Of a stretch of DNA of 54,303 bases, positions 415 to 36,523 are shown piece by piece. The first letter of the stretch is position 1. The number at the start of each line of letters is the position of its first letter. The stretch is from a virus. Taxonomy: Duplodnaviria; Caudoviricetes. Made by a program: the position numbers and the translations under genes. Where the stretch lies: positions 1 through 54,303 of the IMG/VR virus record IMGVR_UViG_3300032313_000663. The stretch is one strand, 5' to 3'. The notes beneath the pieces are model-generated. The model was not told the DNA's origin, made no database searches, and saw only the letters and a list, made by a program, of their open reading frames with translations.

Positions 415-1290
415 TCATTCACTGATCCTTGGCAGCACGTCGCAAGGCTTCGGTCCCGTTTCAATGAAACGAGGATCGACATAATACGCTTTGGCGATTC
501 TGGGCGATGAATGATCAAGCATCGCCGTTGCATCACCGCCACGAGCAGCGTAGTGAGTCGCTGCGCTGCGTCTAATCATGTGAAATTTCGTCTTGCGTCC
601 GCCGTCGAGGCCAGCACGCTTGACGATCCTTCCAAACGAATGCCAGAGCATGTTCTTGAACTTGTCCCAACTGAAGATTGCCTGACCCTGCTTCTTGCCA
701 CGGCACAACTGATCGACGAGGTGCTGAGTCTCAAGGGAGAGGGAATAGAGTTTGTCTCTCTTCCGTCCCTTTCGATACTCGCTCCTGACGAGCAGTTGAC
801 CTTGTTGATAGTCGAGGACTTGCGTCCCCATGATCGCGCCGACACGCTCAGCAGTCTCCCAAAGAACACTCACGAGTGCCCGAAAATAGAGACTCGTCGG
901 AACTCCATCGACAGTGCCGACCTCCTTGTCGGTCGCACGGATCAACGATCGAATCTGATCGATCGTCCACGCCGTCGGTATCCGTTCGGGCAGCGTTGCT
1001 GGTGGGACGCACGGTCGAGTCTTTAAGAGGCCACGGTCACAGGCGAAGCGAGCGAGACTCAGTAGCTGAGTCCTCTCCTTTTCGGCAGTGAACGCAGACC
1101 GTTCGCTGGCACGCTTCGCGAGGAAGCGTGCCAGCGTCAGGTCTTCCAAGTCATCGAGCGTCGGCTGACGTTCGAGCCACTTCGCAAAAGAGCGAAGGGT
1201 GCAGTGATAAAGCCTCGTGGTGTTTTCGGATTTCCCACGAAGCTTCAGCGGGGCATAGATCGTCTCAAAAAACTCAAGTAGCGAAATCAT
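415..1290 (-). CDS. int: Tyrosine recombinase/integrase
   Basis: R (ETAER), HxxR (HMIRR), H (LDHSS) and Y (AYYVDP); start placed at the ATG after an AAGGAGG RBS. Confidence 0.92.
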   Translation of the reverse strand: MISLLEFFETIYAPLKLRGKSENTTRLYHCTLRSFAKWLERQPTLDDLEDLTLARFLAKRASERSAFTAEKERTQLLSLARFACDRGLLKTRPCVPPATLPERIPTAWTIDQIRSLIRATDKEVGTVDGVPTSLYFRALVSVLWETAERVGAIMGTQVLDYQQGQLLVRSEYRKGRKRDKLYSLSLETQHLVDQLCRGKKQGQAIFSWDKFKNMLWHSFGRIVKRAGLDGGRKTKFHMIRRSAATHYAARGGDATAMLDHSSPRIAKAYYVDPRFIETGPKPCDVLPRISE

Positions 1291-1434
1291 GGTGGTGTGT
1301 CCTCCTTCTGGTGCCACCGCATTGAAGTACTCCTAACGAGCGTCCTCAATATGGGTGGCAGAGTACACATCCGTGCAAAAAAGTTGACCCCCATGCGTAC
1401 CTTATTTGGGGGGGCAAGACTCACTTCTTGTAAG

Positions 1435-5797: not shown

Positions 5798-6096
5798 TGG
5801 ACATCGAACAACTGAAACTGGTTCTTGAAGCGATCAACGCCGCTGGCGGCGAGGCCAAGGAATTTGGCTTCTGGTGGCTAGCATGCCGGTCGCTTTCTCC
5901 TGTTCTGTGCTTCGTTTTCTTCATGACCGCACTCGTGATGATCGTGCGGACTATCAGCAGATTCATAAAGGTCGATCATGCGGCATACGAGATCGCTGGC
6001 GAGGTCGATTACGCTGTTCATTGCTATTGGGATCGACACGACACGGCCGCAGTGATCCAACGAATCCGAGACCTGAAGAAGAAGGCGGCTAAGTGA
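5797..6096 (+). CDS. Membrane protein
   Basis: Central hydrophobic helix; TAATG coupling. Confidence 0.65.
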   Translation: MDIEQLKLVLEAINAAGGEAKEFGFWWLACRSLSPVLCFVFFMTALVMIVRTISRFIKVDHAAYEIAGEVDYAVHCYWDRHDTAAVIQRIRDLKKKAAK

Positions 6097-6413
6097 TGAA
6101 CCGTCGCGGTTTTTTCGGCTGGCTCTCGTCGATCGCGGTTGCGTCGCGGCCTGCCCCCAAGCCCGAGCCGTGCCTGACGCCAGCGTATGCGGGATTCGAC
6201 GGTTCGTTTCGTCTTTACGGAGGAACCTACGGAAGCGGCTACTTGATCAAGCTTGCGAGGACATCCGCATCAAGTCCGGGGCGATGGAAAATCGACAAGG
6301 GCAGGATGGGCTACTGGCGAAACGACGACGGATCGGTATCGAAGTTGATCTGGAGAAACGCCGATGGCAAATTGTTCGATCTTCAGTTCGTGCCGATGGA
6401 GGAGCCGACATGA
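6093..6413 (+). CDS. Hypothetical protein with twin-arginine-like N-terminus
   Basis: MNRRGFFGWLSSIAVA. Confidence 0.65.
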   Translation: MMNRRGFFGWLSSIAVASRPAPKPEPCLTPAYAGFDGSFRLYGGTYGSGYLIKLARTSASSPGRWKIDKGRMGYWRNDDGSVSKLIWRNADGKLFDLQFVPMEEPT

Positions 6414-7420
6414 AAAAGGACATTCTCCAAGTCATTCAAGACCTACTGAAGCACCGCACGGAAGACGCTGGCTGCTACGAGTTCGTACTTGAGGCGTGGA
6501 TTGAGGAAGCTGCCGCCGAGATCGAACGGCTGCGAAGCGGTGCGACATGCCCGCACGTGCGCGGCACCGTGACGCAGCATTGCTCGCTGAACTTCACGCT
6601 CACCGACGGGGAGCGGGAGGCGGTGGAGGCAGCCGTCCGAATCATTGACGCCCATGACGACGAGATGGACGGGTTCCCGTCAGGTGCTGCTGCCACGCTC
6701 CGCAAGCTGCTGGGGAGAACGAATCATGACGCTGTGCCGGAAGCGAGAGCCGCAGAGCCTGAGTCCTCAGTGCCACTGGGGAGCGGTGCGGCACCGGCAA
6801 ATACACAGACTGCTCCACCATGCGTGGAGACAGATGACCCACCGTCGAAAGGCGAGGGGCTTCATATTTCAGATTCCAGAACGCGACTCTCCGAAGCCGA
6901 GGTTGACGCTCTGGAATACGTCGTTGAGGAAGGCCGCATCGCCTGCATGGATGATTACGGCATCCTGCGGTCGCTGCTCGTCAGGTTGCGACCGAAATGG
7001 GAGAGCGAATCGTATGAGAAAGGCGACGAAATACGCACCAACGCTACTACGATTCGGGACACTACACCGGCTGTGGGTAGTGTGCAGCGTGATCTTATCG
7101 AACGCCTGCGAAGGTGGGTGGTCGCCACTGATGCCGTTCCTGCCTCCGACCTGATGGACGAAGCTGCGGACGAGATTGAGCGTCTCCGCGAGGCCATCCG
7201 CAGCCTAGCCGACCAAGATGCCACGCGGTCTGTTCGGGGCGGCAACGTGACTGGCGAGATGGAGTGTCAAGTTTTATTGCAACAAAACTTGACCGACGAG
7301 GAGCGGGAGGCGATTGAGTGGTTTGCGGAAGTGCGAAAGCCGCTGACCAGATTGACTCAGAGCCACAGCCGCGAAAAATACAAAGACACGCTTTGCGGGT
7401 TGCTGGAGCGGCTGAAATGA
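6410..7420 (+). CDS. Mosaic protein of repeated modules (336 aa)
   Basis: EAAxEIERLR twice, LTDxEREA twice, TNHDAVPEA and EIDALEYVVEEGRI-type modules; ends LLERLK. Confidence 0.7.
   Translation: MKKDILQVIQDLLKHRTEDAGCYEFVLEAWIEEAAAEIERLRSGATCPHVRGTVTQHCSLNFTLTDGEREAVEAAVRIIDAHDDEMDGFPSGAAATLRKLLGRTNHDAVPEARAAEPESSVPLGSGAAPANTQTAPPCVETDDPPSKGEGLHISDSRTRLSEAEVDALEYVVEEGRIACMDDYGILRSLLVRLRPKWESESYEKGDEIRTNATTIRDTTPAVGSVQRDLIERLRRWVVATDAVPASDLMDEAADEIERLREAIRSLADQDATRSVRGGNVTGEMECQVLLQQNLTDEEREAIEWFAEVRKPLTRLTQSHSREKYKDTLCGLLERLK
6719..6799 (+). repeat. Hairpin element H1, copy A
   Basis: ACGAATCATGACGCTGTGCCGGAAGCGA shared with 7540-7567; stems 6735-6740/6794-6799, 6749-6754/6787-6792 and 6764-6771/6775-6782. 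Confidence 0.75.
6888..7004 (+). repeat. About 117-bp module, second copy near 7668-7784
   Basis: GACGCTCTGGAATACGTCGT...GGCCGCATCGCC...ATGGGAGA present in both. Confidence 0.85.
7006..7087 (+). repeat. Hairpin modules H2+H3, second copy at 8048-8132
   Basis: CGAATCGTA/TACGATTCG stem followed by ACACTAC/GTAGTGT stem. Confidence 0.75.
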
Positions 7421-7791
7421 CTGACCGTGACTACTTCGCCGCCGCTGCCCTAACTCGCGGGATGGGAGTTCTTGGCCGTGAGCAGATTGCAAAATCGTGC
7501 TACGAAATGGCCGACGCCATGCTCAGAGAGCGGGAGCAAACGAATCATGACGCTGTGCCGGAAGCGATAGCCGATGGGCAGGGACGGGATAGCCCGGACA
7601 CTCCTGACCACGTTGGCACCGGCGACATTCCAGTTTCCAGAACGCGAGGACGGGTAGGCACAATACTATCCGAGGCCGAAATCGACGCTCTGGAATACGT
7701 CGTCGAAGAGGGCCGCATCGCCAGCATGGACGACTACGGCATACTGCGGTCGTGGTTGATCAGGCTGCGGCCGGAATGGGAGAACACATGA
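7417..7791 (+). CDS. Mosaic protein (RDYFAAAAL head plus repeat modules)
   Basis: MTDRDYFAAAAL...YEMADAMLRER followed by modules shared with 6410-7420. Confidence 0.75.
   Translation: MTDRDYFAAAALTRGMGVLGREQIAKSCYEMADAMLREREQTNHDAVPEAIADGQGRDSPDTPDHVGTGDIPVSRTRGRVGTILSEAEIDALEYVVEEGRIASMDDYGILRSWLIRLRPEWENT
7540..7624 (+). repeat. Hairpin element H1, copy B
   Basis: Stems 7556-7561/7619-7624 and 7570-7576/7611-7617; same AAGCGANA loop and single bulged A. Confidence 0.75.
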
Positions 7792-8399
7792 CACGAGAAA
7801 TCGGCCCGGAACTCGCCGCCCGCATCCGGCACGTTGCAGATAGCCTAGAGGCTATTGTGCGTGGCGAAGTCGATAGCCCGAATCCGTTCGCCGCCGCCTA
7901 CGCCGTCTATGTCAACGGAGAGTACGACTCGTCATACGGCCCCGACGCTATTGATGAGGCTCTGGAGATTGCCGCCGACTGCAACGGCGAGGTTGTGCCG
8001 CTGTACCGTACACCGCAGGCAAACGCTACACCGGGCGAGTGTAGCGTTCCCGGATCGTATGAGGAAAGCGACGAAAAACGCACGAACACTAATACGAATC
8101 GGGACACTCCACCAATAGGGGGTAGTGTGCAGGAAGAGGGTACGGTCGGCATGGCTGACATCGCTTATGAGGCTGCTGAGAATCTGCAAGGCGTCTGCAA
8201 GACGTTCGATCAGTGGTCGCGGGAGACGGCTGGCGTGATGCACCGGCTGGCGCGGCATATCGAAATGCTGGAGTCGCGAGTTCCTTCCGACGCAGAGCGA
8301 GAGGCGATTTCAATGGCGTACAGTCGCCTCACGGCGGATGCCAAGTACGGCGAAGTCGCGGCAACACTGAAGGCATTGTTGGAGCGCGTGCGTAAATGA
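7788..8399 (+). CDS. Mosaic protein
   Basis: VVPLY, SYEESDE and AEREAI...AATLKALLERVRK modules. Confidence 0.7.
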   Translation: MTREIGPELAARIRHVADSLEAIVRGEVDSPNPFAAAYAVYVNGEYDSSYGPDAIDEALEIAADCNGEVVPLYRTPQANATPGECSVPGSYEESDEKRTNTNTNRDTPPIGGSVQEEGTVGMADIAYEAAENLQGVCKTFDQWSRETAGVMHRLARHIEMLESRVPSDAEREAISMAYSRLTADAKYGEVAATLKALLERVRK

Positions 8400-8638
8400 C
8401 ATCCAAACGGAAACCCATTGCGTGGTGCGTTGTAGACGAAAAGCGTTCGCCCATTCACCTATCGCACGTCTACAGAACAAAAGCAGAAGCCATGTGGTGG
8501 GGCGATTTCATTGCTGGCTATAGCGGCGAGCCGGTGCGGGTTATGCCGTTGTGCGCAGGGTTATCGATAGTGTTTCCGCCGAGAGGAAAGAAACAAAAAG
8601 GGCCGACAAAACTGTGGATTCCAAAACGTGTTTTGTAA
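8396..8638 (+). CDS. Hypothetical protein
   Basis: ATGA coupled; PIAW...VMPL pattern like its neighbours. Confidence 0.6.
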   Translation: MTSKRKPIAWCVVDEKRSPIHLSHVYRTKAEAMWWGDFIAGYSGEPVRVMPLCAGLSIVFPPRGKKQKGPTKLWIPKRVL

Positions 8639-8648
8639 GGTGTGCGAA

Positions 8649-9035
8649 ATGAGCAAAGAACCCGCCGCATGGCTCGCCGTTGCCACTGATGGCAGCGAAA
8701 GCTCTGCCGTATACATTCTGAAAGAGCAGGCAGACGCCGCCGCCAGAGAGTGGGGCTGGACGGTCGTCCCGCTCTATGCGTTGCCATCACGGCGGGCTGA
8801 AGACGAAATCGCCATTGAAGCAGCGTGGGAACGCACCGGGCTAAAGCCCACATGGCCCGACGACGAGCCGGGGTGCGGCGTGAAGTATGCCCACGCGATG
8901 GCGGATGAGATTCTGCGGCTCCGTCTTACCGCAGAGGAGCGGGAGGCGGTTGAGGCGGCTATCTTCTCGTCTGAAGTGGAGGGCGAAAGGTTTTACGCCG
9001 CCACGCTTCGCTCGCTGCTGGAGCGGCTGAAATGA
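8649..9035 (+). CDS. Mosaic protein
   Basis: EPAAW...VVPLY...LTAEEREAVEAA...AATLRSLLERLK. Confidence 0.7.
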   Translation: MSKEPAAWLAVATDGSESSAVYILKEQADAAAREWGWTVVPLYALPSRRAEDEIAIEAAWERTGLKPTWPDDEPGCGVKYAHAMADEILRLRLTAEEREAVEAAIFSSEVEGERFYAATLRSLLERLK

Positions 9036-9130
9036 ACCGAGGCGTGTGCCATAGGTGTGCAGGCCGATGGATGCGGTGCTGGAAGTGCCAAGTTGGCACG
9101 CTCCGCTCCCTGCTGGAGCGACTTAAATGA
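9032..9130 (+). CDS. 32-aa CxxC-CxxC mini-protein with LLERLK tail (not in ORF track)
   Basis: MNRGVCHRCAGRWMRCWKCQVGTLRSLLERLK; ATGA overlaps at both ends. Confidence 0.7.
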   Translation: MNRGVCHRCAGRWMRCWKCQVGTLRSLLERLK

Positions 9131-9609
9131 ACACCATCGACCGACGGGCTTACGAGGGAGACATCGTCTCTCGGCTTCGCCACTGGCGCGGGCTGCACCT
9201 CGCTCACAGCGGTGAGCTTTTCGAGGAGGCGGCTAATGAGATCGCTCGCCTTCGCGGTGACGCGCAGGTTGCGAGACTGCGTCTAGAAGCGGCGCAGGGA
9301 GAGAACGCCACGCTCACCGTTCCGTGGAGCGTCGCGGCTTCGACGAGCCACGCCAGCTACTACTCTGCCCCGGTGCTTCCAAAGGGATTCGAGCCGATCA
9401 GGCTCGACGGATGGATGCCGACGAGCCAGCGTCTCCCTCCAGACGGCGAGACCGTCCTCTGGTATGCCCCTGAAGACAAGTTCTGCAAGTGGCTGTTGGG
9501 CAAAAAAGAAGGCGGAGGCCTTGACTGGGGCGGCGATCTGAACAGCCCGCTCACCGTATACACGCACTGGCGACATCTTCCGGGTCCGCCGCCGCCGTCC
9601 GTAAAATGA
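9127..9609 (+). CDS. Hypothetical protein with DUF551-like C-terminus
   Basis: DIVSRLR...EAANEIARLR...WMPTSQRLP...THWRHLPGPP. Confidence 0.75.
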   Translation: MNTIDRRAYEGDIVSRLRHWRGLHLAHSGELFEEAANEIARLRGDAQVARLRLEAAQGENATLTVPWSVAASTSHASYYSAPVLPKGFEPIRLDGWMPTSQRLPPDGETVLWYAPEDKFCKWLLGKKEGGGLDWGGDLNSPLTVYTHWRHLPGPPPPSVK

Positions 9610-33961: not shown

Positions 33962-34110
33962 AGCGACTTTGCAACCGCTGCAACGCGGAGAAGACGTCCA
34001 ACGCACCGTGCGAGAAGTGCGGGTGCCAAGAGTTCCGAATCATCGGACCACCATGTCCGTCAGGTGCTGCATATCACGGCACCGTTGGTAGCCAAGCCGG
34101 TGTTGGCTGA
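33958..34110 (+). CDS. 50-aa zinc-ribbon protein (not in ORF track)
   Basis: GTGA overlap; CNRC...CEKCGCQEFR. Confidence 0.6.
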   Translation: MKRLCNRCNAEKTSNAPCEKCGCQEFRIIGPPCPSGAAYHGTVGSQAGVG

Positions 34111-34192
34111 TAACCCCGGCTGTCGAGGCGAGTGTTTAGCTCTTTTCCGCTTGTGACTCGATCGTCTGCCTCACGTTACGAGGCCCATACAC

Positions 34193-34441
34193 ATGATGGA
34201 CGACCTAGCAGAAATCAACCCTGAAGCCCTGCTCGCCGACGGCCTCGAAAAGGCTTTCGTTGGCTACACCGTCAATCACCACCACGCTCACGTCGCTGTG
34301 TATGACGTGCAGAGGTGCGTCGACATTCTCGTCGAGCGTGATGGCATGACTCACGAGGGTGCTGAAGAGTACCTGTCGTTTAACACCCTTGGTTGTTACG
34401 TGGGGCCGAATGGGCCGATTTACGTGAGGATGACCGCATGA
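34193..34441 (+). CDS. Conserved phage protein
   Basis: DGLEKAFVG...AVYD...DGMT...EEYLSFNTLG-YVG. Confidence 0.8.
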   Translation: MMDDLAEINPEALLADGLEKAFVGYTVNHHHAHVAVYDVQRCVDILVERDGMTHEGAEEYLSFNTLGCYVGPNGPIYVRMTA

Positions 34442-35232
34442 AGTCAGACAAGCGAAAAAGAGCGGGCATTTCGTCGAAGACTCGTTGGGATGTTTTTCGC
34501 AGGGATGGTTTTAAGTGCATCTACTGCGGCTCCTGCGAGGAGCTTGTTATAGACCACGTAGACCCATTTGCCCGTGGAGGCATTGACTCACAAGACAATT
34601 TTGCGACGGCCTGTAGGAGGTGCAACTCAGGGAAGCGAGACAAAGTTCTTGTGCCTCCGCTTGCTGTAAATCAGGAATTTTTTGACGAGCAAAGGGTCGT
34701 GAGTTCTGGTGTTTCGTATAGAAACCACCTGCACAAAGACTGGGGCCAAGCCCTTCAGCACGCAGATTGTTTTTCTGCGGTCGAATACATCGCAGACAAA
34801 AAACTTTGCCAAGGGGCAGATTTCAGTATGTGTTCGATGCTCACAGGACAAAGGCGGTACATGCGGGTTGTTATCGCCAGCATGTGCGACGAGCGTTCGC
34901 CTGAGCAGCAGAACAAAATACGCGAAGCGGTTTCTAGGGCGTTGAACAGAGATAAAACAATCCTTCTGATTGGGTCTCCGTTTTACTTCTACGCGATGGT
35001 AATCGATTTGTATTACCCGGAGTCGCCATGCGTTGGTCAACTAACAGACAGTCTGACGCTGTCAGATCGGACTATAGATCGTTCTGATCTCGAAGAGTGG
35101 CTCTCTCTCACCGAGGAAGATTTTGTGGAGCCTGCTGACGCTTTTTACCTCAAAGCCAGAAGTTTCCCTTGGAGGAAACGCATGGACGAGATTTACGAGG
35201 GTTCTTGTGCAATACGAAATAAAAGCAATTGA
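34438..35232 (+). CDS. HNH endonuclease domain protein
   Basis: RDGFKCIYCG...DHVDP..GG...N...ACRRCNSGK. Confidence 0.85.
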   Translation: MKSDKRKRAGISSKTRWDVFRRDGFKCIYCGSCEELVIDHVDPFARGGIDSQDNFATACRRCNSGKRDKVLVPPLAVNQEFFDEQRVVSSGVSYRNHLHKDWGQALQHADCFSAVEYIADKKLCQGADFSMCSMLTGQRRYMRVVIASMCDERSPEQQNKIREAVSRALNRDKTILLIGSPFYFYAMVIDLYYPESPCVGQLTDSLTLSDRTIDRSDLEEWLSLTEEDFVEPADAFYLKARSFPWRKRMDEIYEGSCAIRNKSN

Positions 35233-35767
35233 GACAAAGTACAAGGGCATCTTGTTTCGTTCGCGCCTTGAAGCCAAGTGGGCGTGCTTCTTCGACCTTC
35301 TGGGGTGGAAGTGGAGGTATGAGCCAGCAGACTTCAACGGATGGATTCCTGACTTCGCCATTTATGGAGCAGATTGCGTCTATGTCGAGGTGAAGCCTGT
35401 AATCGATTTCCCTACTGACGTTGCTGAGAAGATAGACGCCAGCGGTTGCAGGAATGAAGTTTTGATTCTTGGTGAGCTTGGACCGGAACTCGGTAGTGAA
35501 GACTATTGGTTTCGTTTGGGCTGGCTGAGAGAAGTTAATCATTACGATGAGGCTTCGGCTCCTGATTTTTTATGGGATGAAGCTGTGCTGGGGAGGTGGG
35601 AGGCAGGAAAGGGTTCTATTGGATTTTGTCATTCCGGCATTGCATTTTCGGACAGAATTTCTGGCGGGTACGACGGGGGATGCTTCGGCGAATTGCCGCT
35701 GCATTGGGATGAGATAGATGAGTTGTGGGCTGCTGCCTGTAACTCGACTCGCTGGAAGCCTCGCTAA
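35207..35767 (+). CDS. PD-(D/E)XK nuclease-like protein
   Basis: FRSRLEAKWA-FFD...YEP...IPDF...YVEVK. Confidence 0.8.
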   Translation: MQYEIKAIETKYKGILFRSRLEAKWACFFDLLGWKWRYEPADFNGWIPDFAIYGADCVYVEVKPVIDFPTDVAEKIDASGCRNEVLILGELGPELGSEDYWFRLGWLREVNHYDEASAPDFLWDEAVLGRWEAGKGSIGFCHSGIAFSDRISGGYDGGCFGELPLHWDEIDELWAAACNSTRWKPR

Positions 35768-35782
35768 AGGCAAGGAAGCCTC

Positions 35783-36523
35783 ATGTCCGTAAAATCCCTC
35801 GCCAAAAAACACATCGCATACACCGACCTCCTCAACGAGTTCGAGTCCCCGTTTTCGTCGAACAAGGTCACCGGCCACTCCCTGAATTTCCCGATCATCA
35901 ACAGTTGCACGCCGACGATCGTCTGTGCCGAGACGTGCTACTTCGCGAAGGGGCCATCCACTTGGACGGCTTCTCTCAAGAAGCAGCACCGCCTCATGAA
36001 CTCGATCAAAGCCTCGCCGACGCACATGGCTGTGATTATCGCCGACTGGACTCGTCGACTGAAGCTCGACTTCGTTCGCTGGAACGGCGGCGGAGACTTG
36101 TTCGCCGAGAGCGTCGACTGCATCAACCGGGCCGCGCCGCTCATGCCGACGATCCCGCAGTGGATCGTGAGTAGGAAGCCCAAGCTGGCGGCGGCGATCG
36201 AGCCTGCCTCGAACGTCTACGTGCATTTCTCGGTCGACAAGACGTCATGGGATCGTCTCGAAGAGATGCAGAGCCTTGCCCCGGCCGGGCTGCAATGGTT
36301 TTGGTCTTACCAGTGCGATAAGGGCGAGACTCCGCCAGACCCGATGGTCGCGCCGGTGATCTTCCGCGACGGCTACGATCCAAAAGGCGGGGAATTGTAC
36401 GGAAACGACTGCCCGCTCAATGCAAACGAAGATATCGCAGGCGTCTGCGGCAAATGCCAGCGTTGCTTTAACGGCTGGGCAATTGAGGGGGCAAAGGAAT
36501 GCCTGTCTCAGACACGGCGTTAG
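35783..36523 (+). CDS. GP88-like protein (Cys cluster, radical-SAM-like)
   Basis: CTPTIVCAETCYFAKG, VRWNGGGD, C-terminal CP...CGKCQRC. Confidence 0.7.
   Translation: MSVKSLAKKHIAYTDLLNEFESPFSSNKVTGHSLNFPIINSCTPTIVCAETCYFAKGPSTWTASLKKQHRLMNSIKASPTHMAVIIADWTRRLKLDFVRWNGGGDLFAESVDCINRAAPLMPTIPQWIVSRKPKLAAAIEPASNVYVHFSVDKTSWDRLEEMQSLAPAGLQWFWSYQCDKGETPPDPMVAPVIFRDGYDPKGGELYGNDCPLNANEDIAGVCGKCQRCFNGWAIEGAKECLSQTRR

Follow-up and report, generated by a model that had tools for sequence, protein, structure and literature searches.

The stretch of DNA analysed here in full (the window hereafter: the linear IMG/VR virus record IMGVR_UViG_3300032313_000663, 54,303 bp, an uncultivated phage contig rated 55% complete and with a G+C content of ~60%) carries two copies of a short element, at 6719..6806 (copy A) and 7540..7630 (copy B) of the plus strand, in which a conserved fold and an open reading frame (ORF) are superimposed. 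Both belong to an apparently undescribed family, real and statistically supported, of at least 63 distinct copies left after identical sequences were dropped, whose helices are kept by compensatory changes and which sits in frame inside genes for small phage proteins. Our preferred reading, held tentatively, is that the element is a cis-acting domain of the sense-strand RNA that must stay translatable. Such strong dual coding in a translated gene of a bacterial virus has rarely been documented outside RNA viruses. A preliminary description of the window had proposed either a new cis-acting RNA motif or a coding-compatible mobile palindrome. For the former, the conservation of the fold, the compatibility with coding and the absence from Rfam are borne out, and the action as RNA is what we infer; the latter is not favoured by our results, as complete genomes hold one or two copies in a fixed orientation and frame.

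Folding and shared descent could not be separated from the two window copies alone, because these lie inside a larger duplicated coding module (6709-7021 vs 7530-7800, the blocks 6709-6752, 6866-6886 and 6886-7021 matching 7530-7573, 7627-7647 and 7665-7800), and relatives were therefore needed. Copies were gathered from related viral and metagenome contigs through protein search, DNA patterns and a covariance model (R1, built from 55 copies); related loci are labelled L### and homologous proteins P### below. The protein search, performed with the gene that carries copy B (gene B), returned 47 related viral loci, and a fully degenerate back-translation of the peptide N-H-D-A-V-P-E-A found 12 loci, 11 of which had exactly identical codons. 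Further viral and metagenome loci came from DNA patterns, and R1, once run over the loci, added divergent copies and recovered variants of the lead (L019, L026, L027 and L084:549). The shared plan begins with the lead ACNAATCATGA, followed by a 5' arm (consensus YGCCRR) between two short complementary runs, an A-N-A codon and GCC; a variable interior, a limited set of small hairpins recurring in varied combinations, then leads to GGC-A and to the 3' arm (YYGGCR). The element measures ~60-140 nt, with arm-to-arm spans of 36-114 nt.

No known family accounts for these copies in the collections searched. Rfam 15 gave no match across the window at the gathering threshold, two chance-level matches at E <= 10 in 6400-8000, both outside the copies, and none at E <= 1 in eight related loci (26,242 bases), so that the check which the preliminary description had called for identified no known RNA. 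Among 50,697 GenBank phage records, searched at blastn sensitivity, there was no match, nor was there a true one in the genomes of 185,579 prokaryote species (one per species); a hit of the strict 5'-box pattern in a Microbacterium metagenome-assembled genome (MAG), lacking the 3' box, was taken as chance. A literature search returned no account of such a phage element, at the level of abstracts and thus not as proof of absence. A look-alike of the 5' box with two mismatches, without a 3' box, recurs in an unrelated gene (D-D-A-V-P-D-A) of the L010 and L012 records (G001:54171 and G003:23312) and at L058:778, and is probably due to chance or to resemblance at the protein level.

The evidence for a conserved fold comes from the pairing across the family. 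With the two helices originally described, 87.5% of the cells in 55 copies are paired; the outer helix reaches 96.1%, with three of its six pairs changing on both sides, and the first four inner pairs are well kept. None of 500 shuffles attains the covariation score of this model, and slid partners pair in 27-42% of cells. A third helix (S1), formed by pairing between the five nucleotides on either side of the 5' arm, came to light via divergent copies. Together with the pairing of the two arms (S2) and the inner helix (P3), it gives a model in which 94.9% of 864 cells are paired over 63 copies and nine of 14 pairs show changes on both sides, with a covariation score of 0.191 vs 0.080 in shuffles (0/500 reaching the observed value); sliding the partners by 1-3 columns leaves 24-54% of cells paired. 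The pairs are thus backed by compensatory change beyond both the shuffled and the slid controls. S1 (alignment columns 12-16/23-27) is paired in 93.7% of cells, and four of its five pairs change on both sides; S2 (columns 18-22/145-149) is 99.7% paired and includes pairs seen as GC55/AU6 and as GC57/AU3/other1; P3 (columns 31-34/140-143) is 90.6% paired. Pair 34:140 alone occurs in five standard types (CG27, GC8, AU5, UG5 and GU2, other 14), and pair 16:23 is seen as G-C, A-U, U-A and G-U, the type found in the window being a G-A mismatch. An unbiased mutual-information scan of the boxes placed the S1 pair 15:24 and the P3 pair 34:140 at the top of the non-adjacent pairs and gave no further long-range pairs.

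These compensations take no account of the protein, being synonymous or residue-changing on both sides, which counts in favour of our preferred reading. In six copies CCG/ACC is replaced by CCA/ACT, which is silent on either side, and in three a G-to-A change matched by C-to-T turns Glu/Ala into Met/Thr on one side and Thr into Ile on the other. The Ala codon GCT is always found with the Glu codon GAA (15 copies), and GCC with GAG or GCG. The two copies of L015 carry different arm variants, each self-consistent, which argues against simple lineage effects. Within the interior, a hairpin with a conserved 9-nt loop is built on nine distinct stems, pairs in 33 of 36 cells (shuffle mean 25.1, with 1 of 5000 shuffles reaching 33) and is flanked by two codons that are reverse complements of each other. 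Pairing of the lead with this loop was considered and rejected, as it amounts to 4 bp and variants of the loop are uncompensated. Substitutions within groups of close copies kept 33 pairs and broke 8, a count that is not independent support since the structures were predicted from those same sequences.

In the window, R1 scores copy A at 62.2 bits (E 1.7e-16) and copy B at 68 bits (E 3.8e-18), the best non-member reaches 7.5 bits, and two copies only are present. The unpaired lead (6719..6729 in copy A, 7540-7550 in copy B), invariant at columns 6-14 in 55 of 55 copies, contains an ATGA that resembles the local gene stop/start overlaps. It is followed by S1 (6730-6734 with 6741-6745, enclosing the 5' arm 6735-6740; in copy B 7551-7555 with 7562-7566, arm 7556-7561) and by the A-N-A codon (6746..6748 and 7567-7569, columns 28-30). 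In the minimum free energy (MFE) folds, P3 of copy A pairs 6749-6754 with 6787-6792 around an interior hairpin at 6757-6784, and the corresponding region of copy B spans 7570-7617. The bulged A (6793 and 7618), conserved in 61 of 63 copies, precedes the 3' arm (6794-6799 and 7619-7624). The features of the preliminary description are thus where they had been placed, namely two copies with their arms, a single opposing A and spans of 65 nt (copy A) and 69 nt (copy B, 7556-7624), and the fold then proposed, with inner arms that differ and still pair, is the MFE of both copies. The 8-nt purine-rich stretch at 6741-6748 is indeed present, even though the view of it as a loop probably does not hold, as four or five of its bases are matched by the nucleotides that immediately precede the 5' arm.

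The MFE (ViennaRNA) is -31.3 kcal/mol for copy A (z score -1.84, with 8 of 200 shuffles as good) and -31.7 kcal/mol for copy B (z -3.01, 2 of 200); their reverse strands give z -0.26 and -0.76, respectively. In the wider context 7546-7660, however, the outer stem of copy B is absent from the MFE and z is -0.46. Copy A is followed by two more hairpins (6810..6865, that is 6810-6833 and 6834-6865, the second with a GAAA loop), as had been suggested, and both are in the MFE of 6725-6870 (z -2.57). They encode an optional linker module that also follows the element in L014, L015, L082, L099, L100, L111 and L143. As a plain string, the 5'-box 25-mer is present at two places in the window, with 0 expected, whereas GGCACCGGC, a 9-mer of the 3' arm, is weak evidence by itself (3 in the window vs 0.86 expected, and 7 of 100 shuffles reach 3).

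The element is constrained as coding sequence as well. A stop in frame 0 is found in none of the 63 copies; the 3' box lies in frame 0 in 59 of them, the frame stays open downstream over 30 codons or more, or until the contig ends, in 59, and the interior length is, with four exceptions, a multiple of three. A small clade made up of copy A, L016 and L144 has an interior shorter by 1 nt and an extra base right after the 3' arm, so that the letters of the arm are kept, read in another frame, and the downstream frame is restored. This compensated frameshift is what a dual constraint predicts. Translated, the 3' arm gives A-P-A in one copy (A) and G-T-G in the other (B), as the preliminary description had it, and from that difference the fold was held to be conserved without regard to the reading frame; the first half of such claim is upheld by the covariation of the 63 copies, the second was overstated, because it generalised from the exceptional clade of copy A.

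The peptide of the interior is not conserved, and changes among close copies number 17, 27 and 30 at codon positions 1, 2 and 3. In the A-N-A codon of 55 copies, column 28 is A in 53 and column 30 is A in 52, and the middle base at column 29 is free (G17/T14/C11/A13), so that R, I, T or K is encoded about equally often; in the long genes of the window the shares of the corresponding A-ending codons are 0.06 for AGA, 0.07 for ATA, 0.13 for ACA and 0.17 for AAA. Among four gene-B orthologs, 14 of 37 degenerate codons of the N-domain vary synonymously vs 1 of 11 in the box. As protein, the element is a weakly conserved and probably disordered linker that joins protein modules, and in L090 it stands between genes as its own 49-codon ORF. 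In L076 and L095 the frame ends 7 codons past the 3' box, with the usual next module (of the E-R-L-R-N-G-A-V type) in another frame, which reflects either a frameshifted gene or an assembly error. Other uses of the 5' box were rejected: an ORF in the +1 frame from its ATG is open in only 27 of 63 copies, hence not conserved; no sigma-70 promoter was found at the box by a consensus scan of 5800-9200 or of L090; and a likeness to an alphaproteobacterial promoter consensus was dropped, since the spacer is too short and its covariation would be unexplained.

According to our preferred reading, the RNA domain would sit in a polycistronic early mRNA. Its 3' arm would pair with the 5' arm (S2), P3 would stack on S2, and the bases flanking the 5' arm would pair with each other (S1), so that the core, judging from the topology of S1 and S2, may be an H-type pseudoknot or else a two-state fold that switches between a local hairpin and long-range closure. 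Its place inside genes would have kept stops and frame-shifting changes in length out of the element. The fold would work in cis on the flanking modules, and its likeliest role is that of a signal for recognition, for stability or for the pacing of translation; candidate actions are a site for factor recognition, protection or processing of the early mRNA, and pacing of the ribosome between modules. That the folded molecule is the sense-strand RNA rather than single-stranded DNA is suggested because the three core helices contain 15 G-U cells vs 3 A-C cells, the orientation is fixed, with all 63 copies in the sense direction although 53 of them would be open in some frame if reversed, and the topology of S1 and S2 is of an RNA type. 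The argument from G-U pairs made in the preliminary description therefore holds for the window copies and for the core helices, and weakly for whole-element energies across the family.

Known RNA elements offer partial parallels. As in the pseudoknots and long-range helices of phage or viral mRNAs that stimulate frameshifting or serve as translational operators, a hairpin loop would pair with a downstream strand within a translated phage region; in our element, however, the third loop is a 30-110-nt structured insert. A -1 frameshift signal was rejected, given that no heptamer of the X XXY YYZ type could be seen by inspection in the lead ACNAATCATGA or in the varied upstream contexts, and that the conserved downstream modules remain in frame 0. 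The nut and put antitermination RNAs of lambdoid phages are structured, found in one or two sense-strand copies per genome, and located in early operons. By description, the element is likewise structured, on the sense strand, in an early region and present once or twice per genome; nut and put sites, however, are not known to be translated. Bypass elements, such as the T4 gene 60 gap and the byps of yeast mitochondria, are short GC-rich hairpin inserts in coding sequence that break the reading frame and depend on a take-off codon matched by a landing codon. Our element was rejected as one of these, since all 63 copies have an open interior, 59 of them keep the 3' box in frame 0, and the sole matching codon pair found would land out of frame.

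Several of our own results weigh against a translated RNA domain, or limit what can be claimed for it. Pairing, covariation, coding compatibility and distribution are its demonstrated part; what selection preserves is the nucleic-acid fold of the linker. Thermodynamic support is modest, as the mean z is -0.83 against synonymous recoding, with 4 of 51 copies below -2, and -1.46 against codon permutation; whole-element energy favours the sense strand in just 32 of 55 copies (z -1.67 sense vs -1.26 reverse). Among the sequencing runs that match 6300-8100 of the window, no RNA run was present. Since the copies share ancestry, the shuffle controls make significance look greater than it is, and each pair has seen a small number of independent double substitutions, about one to three. 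S1 was defined after viewing the data, which makes its statistics exploratory, and most search patterns demanded parts of the 5' box, whose invariance is in part a matter of construction. As for the core, a full S1 (5-6 bp) and a full S2 (5-6 bp) cannot coexist with a 6-nt loop, and the pseudoknot requires pair 16:23 to be open, as it is in 18 of 63 copies. Lastly, L012 breaks two outer pairs.

A different explanation is that the element works at the level of DNA, as a recombination linker whose boxes are short homologies and whose hairpin stalls forks or is prone to breakage, so that modules are exchanged in frame between co-infecting phages or prophages by phage recombination genes, with the boxes kept identical by gene conversion. 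It draws on the distribution of the family. The element occurs in 29 different upstream and 25 different downstream contexts (12 residues each) and typically replaces the ATGA junction between modules that are separate genes elsewhere. One and the same interior can occur between different flanks (L063, L099, L105, L165), just as the same flanks can enclose different interiors; in L054 the 5' box is joined straight to another module; and contigs from other samples break and rejoin at 6722, 6801, 7565 and 7572, which are edges of the element. An exonuclease VIII-like protein is encoded in the window, and by energy the two strands fold about equally well. Mosaic joints, however, are also numerous at module borders free of the element (7290-7293, 7781-7785, 8054-8061), so that the element is not needed for mosaicism, and a break-prone hairpin would be expected to be lost rather than kept. 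It would also be left unexplained why the arms compensate each other, why A-N-A has a free middle base, why the hairpin loop is conserved and why G-U cells exceed A-C cells by 15:3. We consider this explanation unlikely.

A bolder proposal, which we judge quite improbable, would make of the element a portable, translatable adaptor that joins separate small genes and whose fold is recognised by a dedicated factor controlling or catalysing in-frame shuffling of modules. Such a factor might be a regulator that binds the RNA, or a recombinase that recognises structure and works on the folded strand, in the manner of integron integrases on attC; if true, the adaptor would be a new class of dual-coded element, a fold-defined site that also encodes a linker. 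The attC site of integrons is defined by its fold rather than by sequence: its outer and inner stems are kept, some bases are unpaired or extrahelical, and the central part varies widely in length. Our element likewise has kept stems, unpaired bases and a centre of variable length. Its arms, however, do not resemble the terminal boxes of attC; it lies inside ORFs and not at cassette ends, and its G-U pairs point to the sense strand. Nor do terminal boxes and a nearby integron integrase accompany it, the window having a generic Xer-like recombinase only.

The same low probability as for the adaptor is given by us to a selfish palindromic repeat of the Rickettsia palindromic element (RPE) type, that is, a mobile hairpin that survives wherever it can be translated as a loop or linker. 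RPEs are short hairpin-forming DNAs that lie within genes without disturbing the frame and add a translated peptide to the protein (PMC10969869), and our element is similarly hairpin-forming, in frame in protein genes, and spread over many unrelated protein contexts. The proteins P0080 and P0082, which have the N-domain and pre-linker of P0084 without the element, could represent an empty site at the protein level; no element-free site was found among the collected loci, and the DNA of P0080 and P0082 was not found among viral contigs. RPEs, however, occur many times per genome, scattered over unrelated genes, whereas one or two true copies were present in each of the five related records that were searched in full (four have a completeness rating of 100%), as in the window, and the many dispersed copies in unrelated genes and between genes that mark RPEs are not seen. 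The element is always at junctions of small phage protein modules, with an orientation and frame that are fixed despite 53 of 63 copies being open if reversed, and with a strongly asymmetric conserved core (unpaired lead, A-N-A, bulged A, and a helix of the pseudoknot type). No consistent target-site duplication was seen, no transposase or Y1-type gene is among the scanned proteins of the window, and the 185,579 species hold no true match. It would appear, by analogy, that the element works most like RPEs and fold-defined sites such as attC, yet it fails the defining features of both.

That only the protein is under selection, as a disordered linker peptide (H-D-A-x-P-x-A ... G-T-G-D/N) whose folding merely follows from the use of Gly/Ala/Pro/Arg codons where the genome is rich in G+C, agrees with the kept frame, the lack of stops, the nearly equal stability of synonymous recodings (mean z only -0.83) and the peptide ends recognisable in protein searches, but is very improbable in view of paired changes that are synonymous or alter residues with the pair kept, of a rare third base fixed in a codon that gives R/I/T/K about equally, of the 3'-arm letters conserved in another frame in the clade of copy A, and of interior changes spread as 17, 27 and 30 over the three codon positions.

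The element carries a caution for annotation, as a "disordered linker" may be selected as RNA or DNA and not as protein. How fused small proteins are assembled is a long-standing question of modular phage evolution, and the element, which marks junctions in the most mosaic part of the genome, could bear on how such proteins are built or regulated. The covariance model, which had been proposed as a check and proved productive when searched over the related loci, leaves a family whose pairing covaries beyond shuffles and thus 63 natural variants, with a clear helix model, for experiment.

Both copies lie in a region (4.7-9.6 kb) of many small plus-strand genes with ATGA stop/start overlaps and repeated protein modules. 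The copy-A gene (6410..7420, plus strand, within ORF 6170-7420) encodes a fusion of several small-protein modules, with a start at 6410 that we infer from the ATGA overlap with ORF 6093-6413, and it matched no Pfam or PHROG family. The copy-B gene (7417..7791, plus strand, its start overlapping the preceding stop) consists of an N-domain, the element and a C-domain; it has 195 homologs at E <= 0.001, many with different linkers replacing the element, among them several unrelated ones, and two have no linker of this kind. Elsewhere in the window, protein scans identified one recombinase, a Xer-like tyrosine integrase (415-1317, minus strand) hit by generic tyrosine recombinase models only, all far below their curated cut-offs, and with no integron-integrase-specific NCBIfam model among its matches. 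The same scans found a PhoH-like protein, an AAA ATPase, a SNF2-type helicase (every match in known phages <35% identity), the exonuclease VIII-like protein, a primase, a second helicase, an HNH endonuclease, a methyltransferase and tail proteins. The HNH endonuclease gene (34393-35232) is carried by an island of low G+C content at 34001-36000 (0.52 vs ~0.60).

The carriers of the family form a lineage of uncultivated temperate phages with the element in the early small-gene region. A freshwater alphaproteobacterial host is likely, because the few named sources of the otherwise almost entirely metagenomic homologs are a Caulobacteraceae MAG and a Sphingorhabdus, and the DNA runs matching parts of the stretch carry a freshwater or lake label. 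Over the region, contigs from four DNA runs gave mosaic joints only. In the freshwater runs X2, X3 and X6, 6300-8100 is rejoined in many orders, with skips of 263-1150 nt and back-joins, and several related phages with reshuffled modules therefore co-occur.

Other repeats were noticed around the element. In the neighbouring small genes, chained by ATGA stop/start overlaps, two modules recur three or four times: L-T-x-x-E-R-E-A... at 6587-6633, 7289-7323, 8287-8309 and 8925-8959, and the gene-end module ...T-L-R-x-L-L-E-R-L-K at 6694-6729, 7387-7422, 9002-9037 and 9097-9132. A second type of linker (7006-7087 and 8051-8132; peptide ...SYE...RTN...NRD...GSVQ, copies 83% identical) also folds, into two hairpins, with one arm pair of 9 bp and another of 7-9 bp that differs between the copies and is compensated; a loose pattern search for its family returned mostly noise. 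Just upstream of some copies of the element there is, in addition, another conserved hairpin with an A-rich arm, a 7-nt loop and a T-rich arm (L090 at about 2309-2433, and L069, L095, L068 and L067), which comes after a conserved stretch that looks noncoding and holds two GC-rich hairpins, and which is itself translated in other contexts (K-E-K/N-...-S-F-S).

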